Sequence record: MH791411.1
Reading direction: 5' to 3' (one strand)
DNA from: Escherichia phage Ecwhy_1
Length of the DNA: 64,000 nt
Part shown: piece after piece, positions 3,740 through 51,948 of the stretch
Layout of the letters: each line of letters starts with the position of its first letter
How positions within the stretch are numbered: position 1 is the first letter of the stretch
Notes under the pieces: generated by a model
The model's database searches: none
What the model was told of the DNA's origin: nothing
The model's input: the letters and a program-made list of their open reading frames with translations, nothing else
Program-made: the position numbers and the translations under genes

Positions 3740-4327
3740 TTATTCTTTTGTAATGTTTAGTTTAGAAACGAAATGGTTTTTTGCTTCTTCAAATGTCATT
3801 GAAGTATATACTGGGTTCCAATTATCGTCAAGATCTGTAAGTACTTTAACTTCCATTACATCTTCAGGTGTGTAGAATTGCCATGTGTTATGATCTGGTT
3901 CATAATTAGGGTCTAGTGTGAAAACTGTTCCATTCTGACCATAAACTTGTCCATCCTCTAATAGCTCACGAAATAAGTCTTCCCCAGTTGTTGGGTCTTC
4001 GTATGCATTATAAAAAGGAAAAACAACATTCTCAACATCAGTTCGGGTAGTACCATCGTCTTCATCATATTCAACCAAACGGTCCTGATGAAATACTAGG
4101 TCAATAGCACCAATGCGAGGTTTATTATGTGGAGTTTTGATTTCTTGCTGGGAATTGTAATCCATACGTTCAGTACTGATGAATACACCACTTGGTGTGA
4201 TTTCAATACCAGATACATTTTCTGGTGAATAATAAGAGTCACACATATCATCAATATGCATGTGCTCATGATACACTTCCATTTCAGGGTTCTGCATCAA
4301 CAGTGCTGCTAGGTCTTTTGCTTTCAA
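3740..4327 (-). CDS. hypothetical protein, paralog of 5067..5684
   Basis: N-terminus MKAKDLAALLMQNPEMEVYH...TPSGVFIST matches MKSHDLAKLLLSQPNLDIYH...TPSGIFTT of 5067..5684. Confidence 0.5.
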   Translation of the reverse strand: MKAKDLAALLMQNPEMEVYHEHMHIDDMCDSYYSPENVSGIEITPSGVFISTERMDYNSQQEIKTPHNKPRIGAIDLVFHQDRLVEYDEDDGTTRTDVENVVFPFYNAYEDPTTGEDLFRELLEDGQVYGQNGTVFTLDPNYEPDHNTWQFYTPEDVMEVKVLTDLDDNWNPVYTSMTFEEAKNHFVSKLNITKE

Positions 4328-4716
4328 TCTTCAATCTCCATAGAGTCATCACTTTCGTAATCATCACTAGTGTACTTAGTTTTTACCTCAATACCATTCT
4401 CATGAAGGTATGTGATAAAGCCATTACCATGAACGAATTGATTATAATATGTATTTTCTTCTACATGTGAGTCATAATCATCTTCGTAATATGTGGGCAT
4501 TGTAACATCATGACCAGCACTTTGCAAGTACTGGAACAATTCTTTCAGAACTACTTCGATATCACCTTCTTCTGTGCCATAACAATATGCAGGTTCACCG
4601 TGAGTGAATTTGAATCCTTTACAGGAAACTGTATAAATGTCACTCATGTTCATACCACAATCATCACATTCATGTATAGAACAATGCTGGTGGAATTTAA
4701 TCTTTTTGATTTGCAT
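4324..4716 (-). CDS. hypothetical Cys-containing acidic protein
   Basis: Track ORF, 130 aa; HQHCSIHECDDCG cysteine/histidine cluster. Confidence 0.45.
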   Translation of the reverse strand: MQIKKIKFHQHCSIHECDDCGMNMSDIYTVSCKGFKFTHGEPAYCYGTEEGDIEVVLKELFQYLQSAGHDVTMPTYYEDDYDSHVEENTYYNQFVHGNGFITYLHENGIEVKTKYTSDDYESDDSMEIED

Positions 4717-5050
4717 TTAGAAAATCCTGTAAAGATGTAGTAGACATTGGACTATCAGCACCATCATACCACAGTGATGTATATGGCTGAACTGAACTAA
4801 TATCAATACAGAATCCTTCACGCTCACATTTTCGAGCGAATTCTTCAGTAGTTAGTTTGTTACCAAAAGAAATCTCAAATTCATAACTAGACATATCAAT
4901 ATCAGTACTGTAAATCAATGTACCATCATATGTAATATGGAGTTTAGAATCTGCGTCAAAAAGACGATCTGAAATAGCTTCATAATCATCTTCAGGAACT
5001 GCTTCAATAAGACGGGCCATTAGTCCAGATGTTACGCGGTAATCACTCAT
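4697..5050 (-). CDS. hypothetical protein
   Basis: Track ORF, 117 aa. Confidence 0.45.
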   Translation of the reverse strand: MSDYRVTSGLMARLIEAVPEDDYEAISDRLFDADSKLHITYDGTLIYSTDIDMSSYEFEISFGNKLTTEEFARKCEREGFCIDISSVQPYTSLWYDGADSPMSTTSLQDFLNANQKD

Positions 5051-5066
5051 TTTTTAATCCTTTTTT

Positions 5067-5684
5067 TTATTTTTCAAGTTTATCAATAATAGAAGGTGAT
5101 ACTTTTACATTGAATTCAGAATCAGGAAAATCTTTAGAAAATGAATCAATTTGTTCTTGTGAAAGTTCTTCTTTTTGTGGAAATAACATTTTAACTAAAT
5201 TTTTACCACATTCAATTGCTTCATCATACGACATAGTTTCCCATGTTCCATGCCAAGTACTAGGTTCATATTCTGTCAGTACAGAAATGAAATCAATATC
5301 ATCGGGTGTATACCAAACAGCATTTTGATTCCCTGATGGTGCTGATTGATTTTTACCTAATAAAACAATTGGCTTTTCATAAGGAATGTTAAATATCAAC
5401 CCAGATTCTAAGTTAAGAACAGTTTGAATAGATGAACCCTCCAATTTTGGAGTAATAGTACCATCCTTAAAGAAAATTTGTACATGACCCAAGAGTGGGG
5501 TTTCATATGGTGTAAGTACATTTTCAGAAACTGATGTGGGTTTTGCCGTTGTGAAAATACCAGATGGGGTGACCATTAATTTATTATCAAAATTCTGATA
5601 ATGCAATTCACTATCCACATCATAATGATAAATGTCTAGATTTGGTTGAGATAGTAGTAATTTTGCTAAATCATGAGATTTCAT
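5067..5684 (-). CDS. hypothetical protein, paralog of 3740..4327
   Basis: Start moved to internal ATG at 5684 (MKSHDLAKLL) by paralog alignment and GGAG-type RBS upstream; track start 5714 lies inside a terminator hairpin. Confidence 0.5.
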   Translation of the reverse strand: MKSHDLAKLLLSQPNLDIYHYDVDSELHYQNFDNKLMVTPSGIFTTAKPTSVSENVLTPYETPLLGHVQIFFKDGTITPKLEGSSIQTVLNLESGLIFNIPYEKPIVLLGKNQSAPSGNQNAVWYTPDDIDFISVLTEYEPSTWHGTWETMSYDEAIECGKNLVKMLFPQKEELSQEQIDSFSKDFPDSEFNVKVSPSIIDKLEK

Positions 5685-5693
5685 TTTATTTCT

Positions 5694-5725
5694 CCAAAAG
5701 AAAAGGAGAGTCACAATGACTCTCC
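5694..5725 (-). terminator. putative intrinsic terminator
   Basis: 9-bp stem GGAGAGTCA/TGACTCTCC with CAA loop, followed on the minus strand by a T-rich run; sits after gene 5733..6173. Confidence 0.4.
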
Positions 5726-5732
5726 ATATATT

Positions 5733-6173
5733 TTATTGTAAAACTTTGAGTTTGTAAAGCATTCCTTCACAAAAACTCATAATGTCTTCTAGCGTGTTAG
5801 TACTACCATAGTCTTCAGCCTCTTCTAGCATAGCATGAATGGCTTTACATTGACTAACATATTCTTCAAGAATTGGTACACAATCCTCGATAGGGGTAAA
5901 ACGATAACTGTTACCAGTACCTACCTGCAATGCCCCGCGAGTGTTCATAATACCCTCTACAAATGCATCAACGTACTCAGGTAACTCTTTGTATAGTTCA
6001 TCCAATTGTAGGTGCTTCGTGTAGAAATGGCTCTGTAAATGCCAGTTGTGAGCAGCAGCACTTAAAAATAAACTATTCTCAATAAATGTAAGTAGTACTT
6101 CATCATAAGAACTATCTTCTTCAGTATCTCCGATAAAGTCCATTACATGTCGTAAATCATTAATATTTTCCAT
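5733..6173 (-). CDS. hypothetical acidic protein
   Basis: Track ORF, 146 aa. Confidence 0.5.
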   Translation of the reverse strand: MENINDLRHVMDFIGDTEEDSSYDEVLLTFIENSLFLSAAAHNWHLQSHFYTKHLQLDELYKELPEYVDAFVEGIMNTRGALQVGTGNSYRFTPIEDCVPILEEYVSQCKAIHAMLEEAEDYGSTNTLEDIMSFCEGMLYKLKVLQ

Positions 6174-9484: not shown

Positions 9485-9940
9485 TTACAACATTTTTTGA
9501 ATATGATCTACGAGTTTATACAGTTTAGTGTTTTCATTCTCGTATTCCAAATCAACTTCAACTTTGAATTCTTCTTCAAGTTCCATGATCATTTCAATCC
9601 AGTCAAGCCAATCGAATTTAAATTTTTCCACGACTTCACATTTAGTAAGATGGAAGTTCATTGATACATCTTTTTCGGATGCATTTTTGTCGCGACTTGT
9701 AATGAATTTGACAATTGCTTTTTCAACGTCAGTTAATTCACGAGTGCGATATTCTGGTTCAAGATACCATTCGCCATTATTGATAGCTTCCAACGAAAGT
9801 CTAAGTTCATGCATTAGTTTATAACGATCAGTACTTTTATGGATGCGGTTAACTTCGCGATTCAGTACACGTAGTGCGTCTTTGATTTGTTCGTTTAGCA
9901 TAACAATCCTCTTATTTTTTACTGTACCATTGCATTTCAC
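9485..9940 (-). CDS. hypothetical protein with ACP-like C-terminal segment
   Basis: C-terminus DWLDWIEMIMELEEEFKVEVD resembles acyl-carrier helix II (DSLD.VELVMALEEEF) but the phosphopantetheine Ser is Trp. Confidence 0.45.
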   Translation of the reverse strand: MKCNGTVKNKRIVMLNEQIKDALRVLNREVNRIHKSTDRYKLMHELRLSLEAINNGEWYLEPEYRTRELTDVEKAIVKFITSRDKNASEKDVSMNFHLTKCEVVEKFKFDWLDWIEMIMELEEEFKVEVDLEYENENTKLYKLVDHIQKML

Positions 9941-11150
9941 GGATATCTAATAGTACCTTCGTAGCCAACTTTATGTTTGGTCGCTTCGGTAGATGGGTCT
10001 TATGATACGCCACATTTCGGATGTAGTCAACCTTTTCGTTGAAATAATCCATAACTTCTTGATACAACCACTTCCCGTTACGAATGTCCATCAACATAGC
10101 AGCATCCGGTCGGTGAACTTGGATGATACCAGTTTCAAGTGCTTCCTGTGCTGTATTCAGCAGCCTGACTGTATGCATTGCGTGTTTACAATCATAACCG
10201 TGGTGTGATTCAAGAATAGCACGTTTGGCATTACGATTCTGCTTCCATTTGTGATAACTCTTACGGTTCTCACTATTTTCTTTGTATTCTTTTTCATTGA
10301 ATTTTACAATGAGTTCAGGACGAACTTTCAATTCTTCTGTAGTACGTTCTTTGTTGAAGTAACGTAGTGAACCATCAGCATTCACTGTACTTTCATTCGG
10401 GTTGATAATTACCCCAAAGATGTTTTCACCGTAATGGATTAGTTCATATCCAGAATTGTAATTCAATAAATTGAAATCACGATCTAATACTTTATCAGTA
10501 CTATAATTATGTACTAAACGTACAAAATGATATTGTTTCAATGCTTGTGTTGAAACTAATTGTAATGAAGTATCACGCATGTATTTTTCAAAATCAATTT
10601 TTGTAGCATTGAATGGGTGAAGATTGGATTTATTCAAACGGTCAACCAAATACTGCGGAAATGTATCATACATCCATGAAAGTACTTCGTCAACTGGATG
10701 TTCTTCTAAAATTTCATTTAGTTTACGTTCAGCAATTCGTTCCTTATCGAGCCAGCCGTGGTGATTAGACATACGCTTAACCTGATTGTATGCATATCCA
10801 CTGTATGAGTGTGCAATCTTTGAACTCAATAATTGCTGATTGAATGAGCGTAGATAGTCATAGATTTCAGTACTTTCTACGATGTGTTCCGGTTTAACCC
10901 ATAGTGATTCAAGAATGTTTGGGTTAGCTTCAGTATACAGACTTAAGTACTGATTGATTTCATAAAATTTAGTATCTTCTTCAGAAGTATCTGAAACTTC
11001 CTTAACATTAAAAAAAGGAGTTAGGATATATTCTTTGTTTGCAAGGAAGATACCACGATAATCTGTATCACTTTCTGGTGTGCTTGTGCCATACGCCTGT
11101 GAACCAGCTAAGTGTTTCACAATAGTTTGTTCTAGAAAATTGTTTTTCAT
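9912..11150 (-). CDS. nucleotidyltransferase-fold protein (Pol-beta superfamily)
   Basis: N-terminal GSQAYGTSTPESDTDYRGIF fits GS-x(9-13)-D-x-D minimal nucleotidyltransferase signature; 412 aa; specific family not determinable by eye. Confidence 0.5.
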   Translation of the reverse strand: MKNNFLEQTIVKHLAGSQAYGTSTPESDTDYRGIFLANKEYILTPFFNVKEVSDTSEEDTKFYEINQYLSLYTEANPNILESLWVKPEHIVESTEIYDYLRSFNQQLLSSKIAHSYSGYAYNQVKRMSNHHGWLDKERIAERKLNEILEEHPVDEVLSWMYDTFPQYLVDRLNKSNLHPFNATKIDFEKYMRDTSLQLVSTQALKQYHFVRLVHNYSTDKVLDRDFNLLNYNSGYELIHYGENIFGVIINPNESTVNADGSLRYFNKERTTEELKVRPELIVKFNEKEYKENSENRKSYHKWKQNRNAKRAILESHHGYDCKHAMHTVRLLNTAQEALETGIIQVHRPDAAMLMDIRNGKWLYQEVMDYFNEKVDYIRNVAYHKTHLPKRPNIKLATKVLLDIREMQWYSKK

Positions 11151-11548
11151 AAGTAAATCGTTAACTCCTTTAGAAAACCATTATAGTATCGTTTAAAATC
11201 ATGATCCAGTACTTGATAGTCATTGTAACTAAATCCAAGATTGATGATGGTATCTTCTTGGAAGAATTTCTCTTCATTCATTACTTCGATGGGTTCGTAT
11301 TCTTTCCCACCTTTACATACTTTAGTAAAGAACATACCATCATTGTTAATTTCAACGTACATGAAATTATTTTCTGGATCTCGTGGACACACAATGTTTA
11401 GTGAACTTGTCCCATTGTTATTATATTCGTATGAAATAATATCAAAAGAATCGATGCCATAACATTTGGACTTTTCTTTGTCACCAAAGACTTTTCTATC
11501 TGTACTCATATTGCGTATAGTACTGTAGATATCATCGATTGTAGTCAT
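11147..11548 (-). CDS. hypothetical protein
   Basis: Track ORF, 133 aa. Confidence 0.45.
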   Translation of the reverse strand: MTTIDDIYSTIRNMSTDRKVFGDKEKSKCYGIDSFDIISYEYNNNGTSSLNIVCPRDPENNFMYVEINNDGMFFTKVCKGGKEYEPIEVMNEEKFFQEDTIINLGFSYNDYQVLDHDFKRYYNGFLKELTIYL

Positions 11549-11550
11549 AA

Positions 11551-12060
11551 TTAACCACCGTACTTTGACTTATATGTTTCTAAAGATAAAGAAATGCGAT
11601 TTTGCTTTTTAATTCTTTCATCAATATCCTTTGAATTCTTAACACTTCTGTATACATCAGCTAATAAATTATAATCTTCTTTATTTGAGCTATGTAATGC
11701 CCAACCTATATCTGTTTTGATTCGAACATATGCTTTATTTGATGTGAAATAAAAATTGAATCCGTTAGACCCATCAAAAATATCATAAGTATTTACCCAA
11801 TCTCCATAAGGAAAACTCATTGGTACTGACTCATAATCAATGGTGATATCCGATAAATTTTTAGAACAGTACTTTACAAAGTGGTAAACAATCGGATCAC
11901 ATTTTGATAATTCGTATTTGTATTCAATGATAGTTTTTCTATTAGTATCATTGATGGCATATTCTTTTATCAATGGACTTTTTTTGATGATAAGAGTCCA
12001 TAGAAACGATTCTAATCCAGTTTCATCAACTTTTTCTTTCTTTTTGAAAAATGAAATCAT
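11551..12060 (-). CDS. hypothetical protein, tandem paralog family member 3
   Basis: Shares ...TNRKTIIEYKYELSK... block with 12057..12578 and 12585..13151. Confidence 0.5.
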   Translation of the reverse strand: MISFFKKKEKVDETGLESFLWTLIIKKSPLIKEYAINDTNRKTIIEYKYELSKCDPIVYHFVKYCSKNLSDITIDYESVPMSFPYGDWVNTYDIFDGSNGFNFYFTSNKAYVRIKTDIGWALHSSNKEDYNLLADVYRSVKNSKDIDERIKKQNRISLSLETYKSKYGG

Positions 12061-12578
12061 TTATATAAACCCTTAATTTTCTGTCTATTATGTATATCAT
12101 TTTGCTGAATTTTCAAATTAGTAAGATTGTGTCTTACACCTTCAACGCCACGCATTATTTGTAACATAATTAGTGATTCGTCATATGTTAGAACATTGCT
12201 ATTATTATCGATATATACTTTCACTCCACTTTCAAGATAATCATTTTCTTTGGAGTTAAAGTTTCTAATAGCAAACTTAACGCCATTTGTTGCATCACTG
12301 AATACATATCGTTCCGCACCGTAGAATGTTTTTCCACGAAATAAACCGCCTTCTTCAAACTTCCAACGACTGGATTCATAATCATTAACGTAATCAATGA
12401 TTAATGGTAGCAAAGGGTGTTTGCTCAATTTATATTTTGCTTCTAACAGAACACGACGATCTTGATCTGTATTGATGATATCTTTAAGTGTGAAACTTTT
12501 TGATATAATTTTAAAGATAATTTCATGCCAAATTAAAGTACTGTTTTGTTTTCCAACTGGGCCAAAAAACATATTCAT
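12057..12578 (-). CDS. hypothetical protein, tandem paralog family member 2
   Basis: TDQDRRVLLEAKYKLSK ... SSRWKFEEGGLFRGKTFYG aligned to neighbours. Confidence 0.5.
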   Translation of the reverse strand: MNMFFGPVGKQNSTLIWHEIIFKIISKSFTLKDIINTDQDRRVLLEAKYKLSKHPLLPLIIDYVNDYESSRWKFEEGGLFRGKTFYGAERYVFSDATNGVKFAIRNFNSKENDYLESGVKVYIDNNSNVLTYDESLIMLQIMRGVEGVRHNLTNLKIQQNDIHNRQKIKGLYK

Positions 12579-12584
12579 TCCTCA

Positions 12585-13151
12585 TTAGTATAAATCAGTA
12601 ATGTCTTTGTATGCATTAATCTGTTTTTGTTGTAATGAAAGTTCATTGAGTTTAGTTACCATTTTATCTACACCAACACGTATATAGAAAATAATAAATG
12701 AATCTAACTTGCCTAGAGTAATTCTTGAACTGTAAGTTGAAAGTTTTCTTGCATAAACATAAATTTCTTCTTCACTTGGTAAACGTTTCTCAATCAGCAA
12801 GTTTTCCACACCATTCGGCTCATAATCAATCTCGAACTCTACGCCTATCACAGTATCTTGAATGATATCAGTATATGAACCACCGAAAAAAAACTCTCTT
12901 GGTTTGGTTCTCCAACGAGGACTAAATGGGTCAGATGCGTATTCTTTTACAAATTTGTAAAAGGACATTTTACTGAGCATATACTTCATCTCAATTAGTG
13001 CTTTGCGGTCATCATCAGTTTTAAACTCTGCTTTGAGCGATGGACTTTTACACAGTAACTTAACTAAATTGTTGTACATCTTTAATGTACGTTGGTCTTT
13101 CATTTCTTGGATTTTGTGACGCTTTGGTGGTGGTAGTAAAGATTTGACCAT
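12585..13151 (-). CDS. hypothetical protein, tandem paralog family member 1
   Basis: TDDDRKALIEMKYMLSK ... SPRWRTKPREFFFGGSYTD aligned to neighbours. Confidence 0.5.
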   Translation of the reverse strand: MVKSLLPPPKRHKIQEMKDQRTLKMYNNLVKLLCKSPSLKAEFKTDDDRKALIEMKYMLSKMSFYKFVKEYASDPFSPRWRTKPREFFFGGSYTDIIQDTVIGVEFEIDYEPNGVENLLIEKRLPSEEEIYVYARKLSTYSSRITLGKLDSFIIFYIRVGVDKMVTKLNELSLQQKQINAYKDITDLY

Positions 13152-13183
13152 AATTTCCTCCTGTATTTTCTAGCATTATACAC

Positions 13184-13214
13184 ATAAAAGAAAAGCCCGT
13201 CAATAGACGAGCTT
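13184..13214 (-). terminator. putative intrinsic terminator
   Basis: Imperfect 9-bp stem AAGCCCGTC/GACGAGCTT followed on minus strand by T-rich run, just after the tail-fibre gene stop. Confidence 0.35.
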
Positions 13215-46497: not shown

Positions 46498-46742
46498 TAC
46501 AATAATCCTCTCACATAAAACATTGATGAAAATAGATAATCTTCAGTACTAGAATTTAGTAGTTTATCAAAACTATATTTTTTATGCTTATTTTTATACA
46601 AAGACATTCTATAGAATCTTTCTATATTTTCTAAGTATTCATTTCGTAATAACATCTGTGTTGTTACATTCACTATAATGTACCTTAAAAGAAAAAGGGA
46701 CCAATATATGATCCCTTTTGTATTAGAAATTACCTTCAGCAA
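46497..46742 (-). CDS. hypothetical protein
   Basis: Track ORF, 81 aa. Confidence 0.4.
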   Translation of the reverse strand: MLKVISNTKGIIYWSLFLLRYIIVNVTTQMLLRNEYLENIERFYRMSLYKNKHKKYSFDKLLNSSTEDYLFSSMFYVRGLL

Positions 46743-47655
46743 CTTGCATTACTTTCAACCCAAGTAGCTTACGCCACATGAATACAACTTGTGATCTATC
46801 ATCATAAACCTTTTTAACATCGTAATGATCAACCACATTTTTCATGTACAGGTCGAATTTTACAACATCATCAGGACGTTTGTCATCGATGCCTCGCATA
46901 AACAACGCATCATAAGGAACACCCCAATTCTTAAGCCACTGTTCGGTATCAGCACGACACCCTTCAGTACGCCCACTCATGACGATAATCTTGCGTTTAT
47001 GAAAAACTGCTTCAGCGATAACAGATAAAATAACTTCTTCGTCTGGTGTATCCTGGAGTACAGTACTTTCATCGAACGGGTTACGTCCCCATTTATGAGC
47101 AAGAGTACCGTCGATATCAACGATAATAGCAGCTTCTCGTGAATTACCATAGTAACCAATGTGTAATGCCTTACTATAATAGTACGTATCTGCCATAGTG
47201 TCAATGATATTATCTTGTACTGAACGCTCACGCTGGAGGTTATATTTCTTACAAAGTTTTACGAACTCTTTAATCTTAAAGAATTCATGAACATCTGCAC
47301 CACGGTCTTCATTAGGTACAAAATCATCATAGAAGTTCTTTTCTTTGTAATCATAACCATTATCTATAGCCCATACTTTCCATAGATTACGGAAATGTTG
47401 TTTAAGGTTCGTATCGGATATGATGATGTTCCAACCATTCTCTGCTGCTGAATTTGCTGCACTGAACTGTAAATTAGTTACGTACTGCTCATTAGCATCG
47501 TTGAATTTGTAAGCATCATGTGACCCAGCCATAGATTCACGAATATCATCACGGTTGATGTTGATAGTCTTGGATTTGGCTTTTTTAATCTCTTGCACTG
47601 CCCATGTAGTTTTACCACACCCAGGCAATCCAACTGTTAGTGTGATAGTTGGCAT
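46723..47655 (-). CDS. pnk: polynucleotide 5'-kinase / 3'-phosphatase (T4 PseT-like)
   Basis: N-terminal P-loop TVGLPGCGKTTWA; HAD-type phosphatase motif AAIIVDIDGTLAH in C-terminal half; 310 aa. Confidence 0.85.
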   Translation of the reverse strand: MPTITLTVGLPGCGKTTWAVQEIKKAKSKTININRDDIRESMAGSHDAYKFNDANEQYVTNLQFSAANSAAENGWNIIISDTNLKQHFRNLWKVWAIDNGYDYKEKNFYDDFVPNEDRGADVHEFFKIKEFVKLCKKYNLQRERSVQDNIIDTMADTYYYSKALHIGYYGNSREAAIIVDIDGTLAHKWGRNPFDESTVLQDTPDEEVILSVIAEAVFHKRKIIVMSGRTEGCRADTEQWLKNWGVPYDALFMRGIDDKRPDDVVKFDLYMKNVVDHYDVKKVYDDRSQVVFMWRKLLGLKVMQVAEGNF

Positions 47656-48477: not shown

Positions 48478-49620
48478 CTAAAAATCCTTTAGTACAATTT
48501 TCATGTACTTAATAAGAGTCTCTTTGTAATCGACTTTCTTATTGTTGTACATTGCAAAGGCCAAGCCCTGACGATTCAGTTCATTAGTTAAACACTCCTG
48601 AACCTTCTTAGCGAATTCCTTTCGCTCCAAGTGCTTGTGTTCCTTGACGAAGCTTTCAACTTCATCTTGTAAAGCATTATAGCACGAAAAGACTAGTTGT
48701 TCCATTCTTAATATCTTTTGGGTAGCATATTCGTCAGTACTGAACAACTGTTTTAAATCATCACTCGAACCATTTAATACAGCTTCATATAAATGGGAAT
48801 CGAATATAATACTGTCTTTCGTTAAATGCAAAGAACAATACCAGTCGGTTTTGATTTTGCACATTGTACCATTATTTAGGATGCACACAAAACCTTCAAT
48901 GTCAAGCATTTTCTTAACTTCTTCAACACTTTCTTTGAATGTAGCACGAACAGGGAAAGTGTAATGAATATCTTTACCTGTCATGTTAGTACTGTACTGT
49001 GCAAGGCATGGAAACTTGTTACGTAATGCAGAACCACATAATAGTTCACCACTCTTGCGATGGCGAACGTTTAGTACAAATATTTGTTCAACCTGGTATG
49101 GTAATACAATACGGTACTCTGGACTTGTATACTCCAGATTAACAGTATAGCCCAAACGGTCTGCTTCGTCAATGTATTGATACAAATTTTGGTTCTCATT
49201 GAGAAGACGAGTACTGTTAATCGCATGGTCTGAATACAATGCAGTATGTGATTTACAACGAATTACACCATCATTATCACGGTAAGTACTGATTACTGAA
49301 CCATCCAACTTAGGCATCACTACTGCAATGTCATCGAATGTGGTATCAGCAGGGAACATTGTAGCAGGATTTTCGTAAGCATTGAAGAACTTTTTCATAG
49401 TACGAGCAGCACAACGAATCATATCACCGTCTTCATCAATTTCCCACATAGAACCACGGGTTTCTAATGCATTGGGTTGCATGAAATCGGTATATGATGC
49501 TAGACGATAACTGAATACACGATATGTTCCACCAGCAGGACTTTTATGATCCACATAAAAGAAAGCCTCACGAGTATTACATAAGTGCATTAAATCTTCA
49601 TATATTTGTAAAAGGGTCAT
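48478..49620 (-). CDS. rnlA: RNA ligase 1 (T4 gp63-like)
   Basis: FFYVDHKSPAGGTYRVFSYRLASYTDFMQPNALETRGSMWE parallels T4 Rnl1 [41 protein letters not shown]; motif I lysine in PKLDGSVISTY; 380 aa. Confidence 0.85.
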   Translation of the reverse strand: MTLLQIYEDLMHLCNTREAFFYVDHKSPAGGTYRVFSYRLASYTDFMQPNALETRGSMWEIDEDGDMIRCAARTMKKFFNAYENPATMFPADTTFDDIAVVMPKLDGSVISTYRDNDGVIRCKSHTALYSDHAINSTRLLNENQNLYQYIDEADRLGYTVNLEYTSPEYRIVLPYQVEQIFVLNVRHRKSGELLCGSALRNKFPCLAQYSTNMTGKDIHYTFPVRATFKESVEEVKKMLDIEGFVCILNNGTMCKIKTDWYCSLHLTKDSIIFDSHLYEAVLNGSSDDLKQLFSTDEYATQKILRMEQLVFSCYNALQDEVESFVKEHKHLERKEFAKKVQECLTNELNRQGLAFAMYNNKKVDYKETLIKYMKIVLKDF

Positions 49621-49925
49621 TTTATTACCTCTATATCTACATCTGTGCCATAGTAGGAAACGTAACCATTATCTGAATTACATTGAATTGATAACTCTGA
49701 TTCATAGTATGTTACTTTGATCACTGTTAGAACTTTTTCATCAATTTTTCCCGTTAAATAATCCATTTCACGAACACGAACTTTGGTTCCTTTTGGGAGT
49801 TCTTGTGCAATTTTATTAACAAGTTCAAAAGCAGCTTCTTCAAGTGTGTGCAACAATTGCAATCTATCTTGGATATTCATATTATTTCCACCAAGTTGTA
49901 TCACGACCACCAGACAAAGATTCAT
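49617..49925 (-). CDS. hypothetical protein
   Basis: Track ORF; start probably internal ATG (MNIQDRL) near 49880. Confidence 0.45.
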   Translation of the reverse strand: MNLCLVVVIQLGGNNMNIQDRLQLLHTLEEAAFELVNKIAQELPKGTKVRVREMDYLTGKIDEKVLTVIKVTYYESELSIQCNSDNGYVSYYGTDVDIEVIK

Positions 49926-51210: not shown

Positions 51211-51948
51211 TTAGAAATATACCATACCCATCAATTCTGAATCTTCAGGGCGAGTATAGCCTTGTTTCTTAACTTTAAAGTAGAAGGATTCATTGTCTTC
51301 TAAATTATAACGTTTCTTCAAGCAACGGGTATATGTCTGGCAATTAGGATGAACCCATTCATATATATGAACACCATCTTCATTATAACCATTTATACTA
51401 CAACGGTTGCCTTCATGTTTCTTGTAGTTCTTGCTTTTCTCGGTAAATTCTTTTACAGCAGTAGTACTTGGTGATTTATATTCAAAAGGAACTTCAGTCA
51501 TACGGAAATAATAATATTGATCGTCTTCATCATATCCCAAGAGCACTGTGTTAGTTTCACGTACATTGTAATGATTCTTACTTTTCAATTCATTTTCATA
51601 TATATCTTGAAGTACTTCTGCAAATACTGTAGTACTGTCAGCATTTGGGTTGGATACACCTGATACTCTTCGTTCAATAATAAAATCAGTATATTTGCGG
51701 TCTTCTGCAATGTCTTCATTCATATAAAGACTAACGAACTTATCCTTGTACGTCTTTACACTGTATTGTTTACTTTGAACTTCGCTATATACATCTGCTA
51801 ACATATTCTCCTGACCGCACTGCACACCACTTACAGAATAAGCACATGCATGTTCAGCCATCACTGATGTTAACATTTGAAAATTTGCCATGTTTAATTC
51901 ATTCGCCATCTCTGTAGCGAAACGGATACGGTCAAGCACTTTACACAC
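51211..51948 (-). CDS. hypothetical protein
   Basis: Track ORF, 245 aa. Confidence 0.5.
   Translation of the reverse strand: MCKVLDRIRFATEMANELNMANFQMLTSVMAEHACAYSVSGVQCGQENMLADVYSEVQSKQYSVKTYKDKFVSLYMNEDIAEDRKYTDFIIERRVSGVSNPNADSTTVFAEVLQDIYENELKSKNHYNVRETNTVLLGYDEDDQYYYFRMTEVPFEYKSPSTTAVKEFTEKSKNYKKHEGNRCSINGYNEDGVHIYEWVHPNCQTYTRCLKKRYNLEDNESFYFKVKKQGYTRPEDSELMGMVYF

Follow-up and report, generated by a model that had tools for sequence, protein, structure and literature searches.

The gene at positions 9912-11150 of the window (the whole 64,000-nucleotide stretch of Escherichia phage Ecwhy_1 DNA that was analysed, record MH791411.1) is read on the minus strand, from an ATG at 11150-11148 to a TAA at 9914-9912. 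It encodes a protein of 412 amino acids, exactly the coordinates and length given in the initial annotation, which named no strand. The window stems from an Asteriusvirus-like E. coli jumbo phage with 99.9% identity to fEgEco12, and the gene is already annotated as a nucleotidyltransferase in public records. No second RlaP gene was found in the window. The gene and its parts are the following:

9912..11150, minus strand: RlaP-family nucleotidyltransferase gene, 412 aa and stop (ORF read, Pfam PF10127, PHROG 388, dN/dS)
10749..11150, minus strand: N-terminal Pol-beta nucleotidyltransferase domain, residues 1-134 (Pfam, BLASTP, hhalign, AF2 model)
11061..11105, minus strand: G16-S17...S27-D28-x-D30 motif with two of the three metal-binding carboxylates (invariant in alignments A1 and A2)
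10974..10976, minus strand: D59, presumed third catalytic carboxylate (invariant in A2; position in the model)
10302..10748, minus strand: insertion relative to minimal RlaP enzymes, residues 135-283
9927..10301, minus strand: C-terminal helical domain of RlaP, residues 284-408 (alignment to bacterial RlaP; helical model)
10182..10193, minus strand: D320-C321-K322-H323 motif, the intein site in homologs; the window allele has no intein

The gene is under strong purifying selection, with a dN/dS of only 0.047 against the phage 121Q ortholog and of 0.137 against a 71%-identical ortholog. The protein has 516 homologs among the 90% clusters, and 10,261 homolog clusters were counted at 50% identity.

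Judged from its sequence, the protein is an RlaP-family (PF10127) template-independent nucleotidyltransferase with both RlaP domains. The family was assigned by profile searches, which had been suggested earlier as a check. The Pfam RlaP model is matched at 63 bits (cut-off 23; E 4.5e-17), in an alignment limited to query residues 14-131 and model positions 25-144 of 249. The match to the PHROG 388 profile is full-length (E 4e-75), with query residues 3-411 facing profile positions 32-337 of 351; the query is longer than this matched span by ~100 residues, found mostly in the segment 136-204 of the jumbo-phage class. PF10127 is present in all 120 homologs listed. The NCBIfam search with the 412-aa protein returned noise-level matches only. 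PDB sequence searches, with the protein or with the A1 profile, gave zero matches, and the PDB copy evidently does not contain the PfRlaP crystal structure.

Other identities were tried and rejected. The CCA-adding enzyme/poly(A) polymerase family (PF01743) is unmatched at E values up to 1. For a CD-NTase/SMODS enzyme or a cyclic-nucleotide synthase, Pfam and NCBIfam are unmatched, and a single CD-NTase chain was found in Foldseek, at E 1.9. A MNT-HEPN module, defined as a minimal NTase together with a HEPN bearing the Rx4-6H RNase motif, was not recognized.

The N-terminal domain carries the catalytic residues. Residues 7-134 align with full-length bacterial RlaP at 1e-22 (BLASTP), and hhalign, with the A1 profile set against a single canonical RlaP, gives a probability of 96%, for the N-terminal domain only. 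The protein contains the motif HLAGSQAYGTSTPESDTDYRG, that is G16-S17-x-x-Y20-G21 and S27-D28-x-D30. The GS-x-x-YG...SD-x-D signature is thus present as first described, and the Pfam and PHROG matches given above exceed chance. All elements of the Pol-beta signature were found: the hG[GS] helix cap, the DxD motif and a third conserved Asp. G16, S17, D28, D30 and D59 are conserved without exception, both in the 28 sequences of A1 and in the 13 distant members of A2, among them T2 NrdC.11 and minimal proteins of 233-281 aa. Past the DxD motif, D59 is the only acidic residue that is invariant throughout A2, and it opens strand 60-64 in the AF2 model. By analogy with the Pol-beta fold, a catalytic role of D59 is probable.

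The AF2 model of the 412-aa protein (pLDDT 91.3) shows a beta-alpha-beta core in the N-terminal domain, and all of its best matches among PDB structures are Pol-beta-type transferases. A fold unrelated to Pol-beta, the outcome against which the first assignment was to be checked, was not observed. The top matches are HalB, LinB, ANT(4'), ANT(3'')(9), MNT, DrrA and GlnE. Among these, ANT(4'), LinB, the MNT antitoxins and Hailong HalB represent the closest solved folds, in which a helical, HEPN-like bundle comes after a minimal Pol-beta core. The C-terminal domain in the model likewise resembles HEPN-like bundles such as that of kanamycin nucleotidyltransferase. These resemblances would suit an enzyme whose target is not an RNA end, either nucleotidylylating a small molecule or a protein (as ANT, LinB, MNT and DrrA) or making an oligonucleotide or a signalling nucleotide (as HalB and the CD-NTases), which we consider very unlikely.

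The C-terminal domain, which in RlaP enzymes lines the substrate cleft together with the transferase domain, was recognized by way of a bacterial relative. Residues 284-408 align with residues 162-285 of a 291-aa bacterial RlaP at 38% identity (E 8e-25), and this protein in turn covers positions 21-248 of the 249 positions of Pfam RlaP. The link relies on this intermediate because Pfam and hhalign missed the domain directly: the C-terminal domain alone had zero matches in Pfam, and the hhalign comparison with one canonical RlaP was also without a C-terminal alignment. The AF2 model is all-helical over residues 286-409. Of the ~380 aa which the initial annotation had left without assignment, only residues 135-283 now remain, since residues 1-134 form the transferase domain and residues 284-408 the RlaP C-terminal domain.

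Inteins are usually located in functionally critical motifs. In the homologs P0121 and P0122, the D320-C321-K322-H323 region is interrupted and reads GYD|C, then ~328 aa that contain LAGLIDADG-like blocks, then GN|[T/C]KHAMH. An intein retained in the DxKH motif of related alleles is typical of essential active-site regions. The catalytic and C-terminal motif residues are moreover all invariant, and dN/dS lies between 0.05 and 0.14. All of this argues against a remnant that has lost catalysis or has a purely structural role, an explanation to which we give almost no credit.

The gene belongs to a described family, already carries an annotation and is a routine RlaP member; the middle module of ~150 residues is its one unusual feature. 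Residues 136-204 (~64-69 aa) are restricted to the ~412-aa jumbo-phage class sampled in A1; residues 205-283 are common to the 412-aa protein and to the ~350-aa phage class. No fold match was found in the PDB for the insertion 135-283. It is a candidate tRNA-recognition element, and it could redirect the specificity of the enzyme.

The biochemistry of the family is known from PfRlaP and PaRlaP, two Pseudomonas enzymes of the rtcB-rtcA operon (Carruthers, Fatma and Huang, bioRxiv 2025 preprint, PMC12776372). As shown for these two only, RlaP accepts any NTP and extends the 3'-OH of RNA by 1-2 NMPs, with Mn2+ as the preferred metal, and it does not use DNA or protein (PMC12776372). When a tRNA is cleaved in its anticodon loop, the bacterial enzymes favour its 5' half. 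Given annealed tRNA halves, PfRlaP acts on the 3' end at the anticodon loop in preference to the one at the acceptor; RNAs of the size of full-length tRNA and of rRNA were labelled as well (PMC12776372). The window protein resembles PfRlaP and PaRlaP in its PF10127 match, in a Pol-beta domain with three conserved Asp and in the C-terminal helical domain, and by analogy it would also add 1-2 NMPs onto an RNA 3'-OH. However, it is ~150 aa longer through the insertion between the domains, and it belongs to the phage subfamily PHROG 388, not to SSN cluster 1a. Its genome encodes Rnl1 (a 5'-phosphate ligase) and Pnkp, non-adjacent to it, instead of RtcB and RtcA.

In jumbo phages, RlaP is more prevalent than any other transferase of this kind and tracks RNA ligases (PMC7824862), and NrdC.11 of T4 has been named an RlaP (PMC12776372). 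In T2, a close relative of T4, NrdC.11 is related to the window protein in both domains (28% identity and 5e-13 for the N-terminal one, 27% and 3e-5 for the C-terminal one). NrdC.11 of T4/T2 belongs to RlaP SSN cluster 5, and its genome also encodes Rnl1, Rnl2 and PseT. It has 336 aa instead of 412, its middle segment is non-homologous to that of the window protein, its gene is located in the nrdC region, and the NPNILE and WK-NRN motifs, which the PHROG 388 group has, are missing from it. The ~350-aa members of PHROG 388 (Vequintavirinae, e.g. PVP-SE1 gp166, and others) are homologous along their full length, with 35-40% identity over 97-99% of the query. They have the 205-283 segment and all motifs in common with the window protein and are without the jumbo-class segment 136-204 of ~64 aa. 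They co-occur with Rnl1, a CCA-adding enzyme and many tRNAs.

The RNA repair system mentioned in the initial annotation as lying elsewhere in the window is indeed present, in the form of two genes:

46723..47655, minus strand: Pnkp/PseT-type polynucleotide kinase-phosphatase, putative end-healing partner (Pfam HAD_PNKP 5.8e-43 and AAA_33; PHROG 505 3.5e-94)
48478..49620, minus strand: Rnl1-type RNA ligase, putative sealing partner (Pfam RNA_lig_T4_1 and T4_Rnl1_C; PHROG 562 7.7e-108)

A partnership of Pnkp with RlaP is suggested by the literature on the family. The two genes lie 36-38 kb from the RlaP gene, and the putative operon of the latter contains no RNA-repair genes, its members being unknown proteins, an ACP-like protein, spanins and an HNH endonuclease. 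The promoter scan found 47 promoters, not above the 44.8 expected from shuffling; therefore, the operon boundaries are tentative. RlaP stands for RNA ligase-associating Pol-beta, a name that refers to a neighbourhood or operon shared with such a ligase; in the window the closest ligase gene, Rnl1, is ~37 kb away. An RNA ligase and RlaP do occur in one genome in the window, in PVP-SE1 and in T4. In two loci examined among the bacterial relatives from the genome-collection scan (A4), the RNA ligase is not adjacent, and adjacency to an RNA ligase is a feature of some RlaP members only (PMC12776372).

Modification of RNA ends in connection with RNA repair, the role raised as one possibility in the initial annotation, is the best supported one; the bacterial members add 1-2 NMPs to an RNA 3'-OH (PMC12776372). 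Most probably, the RlaP-family enzyme restores lost nucleotides on cleaved tRNA before it is sealed by the phage Rnl1. Upon infection, host anticodon nucleases would cut tRNAs, and some of them (RloC-type) would also excise a nucleotide. The phage Pnkp would then convert the ends to a 3'-OH and a 5'-phosphate, the RlaP enzyme would extend the 3'-OH by the one or more nucleotides that had been lost, and the phage Rnl1 would close the break.

The enzyme could also be an RNA-tailing one that acts outside repair, its short 3' tails marking, blocking or protecting host or phage transcripts or tRNAs in the manner of terminal uridylyl/adenylyl transferases and MenT-like toxins. The family does add any NMP in a non-templated way to many cellular RNAs in vitro, and the gene is not operonic with the ligase or kinase genes in the window. 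Yet addition ends at 1-2 nucleotides, damaged tRNA is preferred, and across genomes the family is repeatedly linked to RNA ligases, Pnkp, the CCA-adding enzyme and Thg1. Since the TUTase, PAP and MenT families are also unmatched by sequence, such tailing is distinctly improbable.

Regarding the reading of RlaP as a repair enzyme acting before Rnl1, several observations count on the opposite side. The RlaP gene is not beside any RNA-repair gene in the window, and a single preprint supplies the biochemistry, for two Pseudomonas enzymes that belong to another cluster and are RtcB-linked. The Pfam alignment confined to residues 14-131, the C-terminal domain unmatched in Pfam, the insertion with its possible effect on specificity and the many related loci without RNA-end genes nearby (see below) also count here.

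The neighbourhoods of related genes point to tRNA ends. A plain Pfam or PHROG search already gives the family, and the initial statement that nothing decides the role was therefore too pessimistic. A CCA-adding enzyme lies on the same strand within 3 kb of RlaP in 13 of the 80 IMG/VR loci (7 of the 32 clusters), in varied arrangements: upstream from -484 to -2465, downstream at +6 and +1710. On the metagenomic contigs L008, L010 and L013, PolyA_pol overlaps or directly precedes RlaP, and in PVP-SE1 the CCA-adding enzyme is found 2 kb upstream. In 8 of the 14 jumbo-class loci, Thg1 is located upstream at 1.8-3.1 kb, on the strand of RlaP, and it is also upstream in Serratia phage BF; this linkage stems from a single lineage. 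Rnl1 was found 2.4-3.4 kb from RlaP, likewise on its strand, in 4 of the 80 related loci. In ~70% of the related loci, the CCA-adding enzyme, Thg1, Rnl1 and Pnkp are all absent within 10 kb.

The class II CCA-adding enzyme/poly(A) polymerase (PF01743) is, like RlaP, a template-independent extender of RNA 3' ends from the Pol-beta superfamily, and the same phages encode it, often next to the RlaP gene. It differs in belonging to another family, with its own body, neck and tail domains and a defined CCA specificity. The ~350-aa PHROG 388 members often lie within 2-3 kb of it, whereas the window gene does not. In the window, no match to the CCA-enzyme profile and no tRNA genes were found; in the near-identical phage WPEC3, a CCA-adding enzyme lies ~12 kb from the RlaP gene.

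This linkage raises the idea that the enzyme acts on tRNA termini and not on anticodon-loop breaks, rebuilding with the CCA-adding enzyme or Thg1 acceptor ends that were trimmed beyond CCA (e.g., the discriminator or acceptor-stem nucleotides). The labelling of full-length tRNA-sized and rRNA-sized RNAs by bacterial RlaP is in agreement with it. The preference of PfRlaP for the anticodon-loop 3' end is not, and neither a CCA-adding enzyme nor Thg1 is present within 10 kb of the gene in the window or in 121Q. The linkage could also be mere clustering of tRNA-related genes. We regard an action on termini in place of anticodon-loop breaks as unlikely. Besides the nucleotide restoration before Rnl1 sealing preferred here, tRNA termini may be further substrates of RlaP, because relatives often place the gene beside a CCA-adding enzyme or Thg1. 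A more specific proposal, which is speculative and for which we see a small chance, is that the PHROG 388 enzyme is a dedicated tRNA-end rebuilder working with the CCA-adding enzyme or Thg1. Its middle module would read the tRNA body, and it would restore nucleotides beyond CCA or in the anticodon loop.

RlaP is regarded as the "fill-in" step that RNA repair had been lacking. With such a fill-in, cells or phages would rescue tRNAs from nucleotide-excising nucleases of the RloC type, which are beyond the reach of healing and sealing alone. An E. coli jumbo-phage RlaP, with the ligase and the kinase encoded in the same genome, offers a convenient test case, and the repeated placement of the subfamily by CCA-adding enzymes and Thg1 provides a concrete hint to its substrates. 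If it exists, a dedicated tRNA-end rebuilder would represent a new step in phage tRNA repair against nucleotide-excising host nucleases.

The gene at 9912-11150, given without a strand in the initial annotation, is present in the ORF listing as a 412-aa frame on the minus strand. It starts with an ATG at 11150-11148 (-), which overlaps the TGA of an upstream 133-aa ORF (ATGA overlap), and ends with a TAA at 9914-9912 (-). The N-terminal sequence of the product is HLAGSQAYGTSTPESDTDYRG, in which the previously described GS-x-x-YG...SD-x-D signature can be read as G16-S17-x-x-Y20-G21 and S27-D28-x-D30. Pfam assigns the protein to RlaP (PF10127, 'RNA repair pathway DNA polymerase beta family') with 63 bits against a gathering cut-off of 23, the alignment being limited to residues 14-131, the first half of the model. 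PHROG 388 ('nucleotidyltransferase') matches it end to end (4e-75); NCBIfam and PDB sequence searches gave no match. Among 5.8 billion proteins searched, 516 relatives were found, the best 120 of which all carry PF10127. A profile search of 50% representatives matched 10,261 clusters (1,673 below 1e-30; lengths 233 to 763 aa). An Anaerolineae MAG (L113) has tandem RlaP genes, a canonical one at 4073-4984 (153 bits to PF10127, positions 9-248) and one at 4893-5855 from the subfamily that is related to the window protein; the few neighbouring genes covered by the scan included no RNA ligase.

An alignment of 28 sequences (A1) separates two length classes, ~412 aa in 121Q/RaK2-like jumbo phages and ~350 aa in others including Vequintavirinae, which differ by a ~64-aa segment (query residues ~136-204). 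In a second alignment of 13 distant members (A2), those of 233-281 aa are devoid of the entire middle region. The domain borders are most clearly set by a chromosomal 291-aa protein of an Abditibacteriota genome (L096:5001-5876), which covers positions 21-248 of the 249 of Pfam RlaP. By BLASTP, query residues 7-134 match 9-133 of this protein (1e-22), and 284-408 match 162-285 (38% identity, 8e-25). Because both query ends align to a protein spanning the Pfam model, the window protein is, as judged from these alignments, a complete RlaP, consisting of the transferase domain, a C-terminal helical domain and a ~150-aa insertion (135-283) between them. Neither Pfam nor hhalign against one canonical RlaP picked up the C-terminal domain directly, and its link to RlaP therefore rests on the intermediate sequence. 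T2 NrdC.11, whose T4 counterpart has been named as an RlaP (PMC12776372), also aligns in both domains (5e-13 and 3e-5). Neither a fold match nor a published description was found for the inserted module, which represents a modest refinement of a known family.

RlaP owes the name given by Burroughs and Aravind (2016), as cited in PMC12776372, to the operons that it shares with RNA ligases. According to Iyer et al. (2021; PMC7824862), no other transferase of this kind is as prevalent in jumbo phages, and RlaP, distributed in parallel with RNA ligases, is predicted to restore nucleotides lost from RNA ends, ahead of ligation. Two Pseudomonas RlaP enzymes were studied by Carruthers et al. (preprint, December 2025; PMC12776372). 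Both extend RNA 3'-OH ends by one or two NMPs, taken from any NTP or from dATP, prefer Mn2+, and have as preferred RNA the 5' half of anticodon-loop-cut tRNA. With these enzymes, a tRNA repaired after the loss of one nucleotide is better aminoacylated. DNA and protein are left unmodified.

The AlphaFold2 model of the window protein, built on A1, is of high confidence (pLDDT 91.3, pTM 0.82). Its top Foldseek matches in the PDB are Hailong HalB, LinB, ANT(4'), MNT antitoxins and TUTases, with weak E-values (~1e-2). As these are only Pol-beta-type transferases, the Pol-beta fold proposed initially holds against the possibility of an unrelated one. With such a range of matches, a non-RNA acceptor or the synthesis of a nucleotide signal can be considered, and we regard it as very unlikely.

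Sixteen positions are invariant in A2: G16, S17, Y20, G21, S27, D28, D30, F35, D59, Y63, L71, K322, H326, R329, E336 and G359. D28, D30 and D59 are the putative metal-binding carboxylate triad of the Pol-beta fold. P0121, P0122 and other homologs of ~680-790 aa carry a ~328-aa intein with LAGLIDADG-like blocks, at an exact insertion point (GYD|C...GN|[T/C]KHAMH) that falls between D320 and C321 of the window protein (10182-10193 (-)), where the window allele is intein-free. Inteins typically occupy critical active-site motifs, so this position marks out D-x-K-H as a motif of functional importance. Against the 121Q ortholog, which is 83% identical in amino acids, dN/dS (Nei-Gojobori) is 0.047, with dS saturated; a 71%-identical ortholog gives 0.137. 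The gene is functional, and an inactive remnant is extremely unlikely.

Over the 7 kb surrounding the gene, identity is 99.9% to Escherichia phage fEgEco12, 99.0-99.7% to EC.P1, WPEC3, WPEC5, vB_Ec-M-J, CMSTMSU and Turkey3, and ~84% to phage 121Q/PBECO4-type genomes (348-386 kb). Given these identities, the window belongs to an Asteriusvirus-like E. coli jumbo phage. A number of these phage records already label the gene 'nucleotidyltransferase', and NCBI and UniRef hold identical proteins named 'nucleotidyltransferase' or 'DNA polymerase beta superfamily protein', with PF10127. The genes considered in the window are as follows.

Genes of the window discussed with the transferase gene
46723-47655 (-): Pnkp/PseT, end-healing kinase-phosphatase, same strand as the transferase; 36-38 kb away, jointly with Rnl1
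48478-49620 (-): Rnl1, RNA ligase, same strand as the transferase; 36-38 kb away, jointly with Pnkp
11551-12060, 12057-12578, 12585-13151 (-): three tandem paralogs upstream, function unassigned (phrog_7868 and phrog_18641)
Between these and the transferase (-): 133-aa ORF (phrog_22376), stop overlapping the transferase start (ATGA); with the three paralogs it spans 11147-13151
9485-9901 (-): ACP-like protein directly downstream (phrog_18343; phrog_5934 'acyl carrier protein', 3.8e-8)
Downstream of the transferase: two spanin-like genes and an HNH endonuclease

Among the RNA-repair labels, support was found only for the Pnkp and Rnl1 genes; the WPEC3 GenBank labels 'polynucleotide kinase' (49617-49925 (-)) and 'RNA ligase I' (51211-51948 (-)) correspond to products with no Pfam match and function-unassigned PHROGs. 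The immediate neighbours of the transferase gene are uninformative. In the ACP-like protein (...KFDWLDWIEMIMELEEEF), a Trp replaces the phosphopantetheine-bearing Ser of acyl carrier proteins, and no PP-binding domain was matched in Pfam; the protein probably has an ACP fold that cannot be modified. At L014, 170-193-aa proteins akin to the upstream ones of the window precede the RlaP gene. Terminator-like hairpins (13214-13193 and 8123-8094 (-)) flank a nine-gene block (13151 to 8132) including the transferase. A near-consensus TTGACG-17-TATAAT at 13175-13203 (-) overlaps the upstream hairpin; overall, promoter-like sites were no commoner than in shuffled sequence.

Gene neighbourhoods were counted at 80 IMG/VR loci with local profiles, the RlaP proteins forming 32 clusters at 70% identity. 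At 13 loci (7 of the 32 clusters), in varying arrangements, the same strand carries a CCA-adding enzyme no more than 3 kb away; the chance of finding a single-copy gene within 3 kb in a 150-kb genome is ~4%, a rough estimate that ignores phylogeny. Thg1 is found within 3.1 kb at 8 of 14 jumbo-class loci (a single cluster), Rnl1 2.4-3.4 kb downstream at 4/80 (a single cluster) and Pnkp within 10 kb at 1/80.

Loci listed with RlaP near an RNA-processing gene
CCA-adding enzyme: L008, L009, L010, L013, L029, L031, L038, L044, L047, L049, L053, L079, L084, L086, L088, L093, L094
Thg1-like enzyme: L019-L028
Rnl1: L063, L076, L087, L090

On the metagenomic contigs L013, L010 and L008/L009, PolyA_pol (the CCA-adding enzyme) lies immediately ahead of the RlaP gene or overlaps it, with Pnkp also 4 kb upstream in L008. 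PVP-SE1 has the CCA-adding enzyme 2 kb upstream and Rnl1 elsewhere in the genome, and in Serratia phage BF and L014 a Thg1-like tRNA-His guanylyltransferase is 1.6-3 kb upstream. At L093 (6299-7273 region), a 789-aa RlaP frame has CCA-adding-enzyme profile matches on both sides (-505, +97), which could be an intein-bearing RlaP beside a split or duplicated CCA enzyme. This linkage supports a function of the subfamily at RNA or tRNA ends, and tRNA termini may be among the substrates. Action on tRNA acceptor ends, together with a CCA-adding enzyme or Thg1, is unlikely for the window protein; none of CCA-adding enzyme, Thg1, Rnl1 and Pnkp lies within 10 kb of the gene in the window phage or 121Q. 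In the near-identical WPEC3 genome, a CCA-adding enzyme is found on the side of the gene away from Pnkp and Rnl1, at ~12 kb and outside the window. RNA tailing outside repair, for which the distance of the gene from Pnkp and Rnl1 would speak, appears distinctly improbable. The only published association of RlaP that we found is with RNA ligases, and the CCA-adding enzyme/Thg1 adjacency in PHROG 388 is a modest refinement.

Published work covers the RlaP family, its occurrence in jumbo phages and the role predicted for it, and the gene was already annotated. From family membership, both domains, the conserved catalytic residues, the fold, purifying selection, the partner genes in the same genome and the neighbourhoods of relatives, we infer the reaction, substrate and biological setting of the window protein. 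It is probably an RlaP-type template-independent RNA 3'-end nucleotidyltransferase, filling in tRNA between Pnkp healing and Rnl1 sealing. Host nucleases would damage tRNA, with loss of nucleotides, and Pnkp would heal the ends; the transferase would then restore the lost nucleotides at the RNA 3' end without a template, after which Rnl1 would seal the filled-in break.
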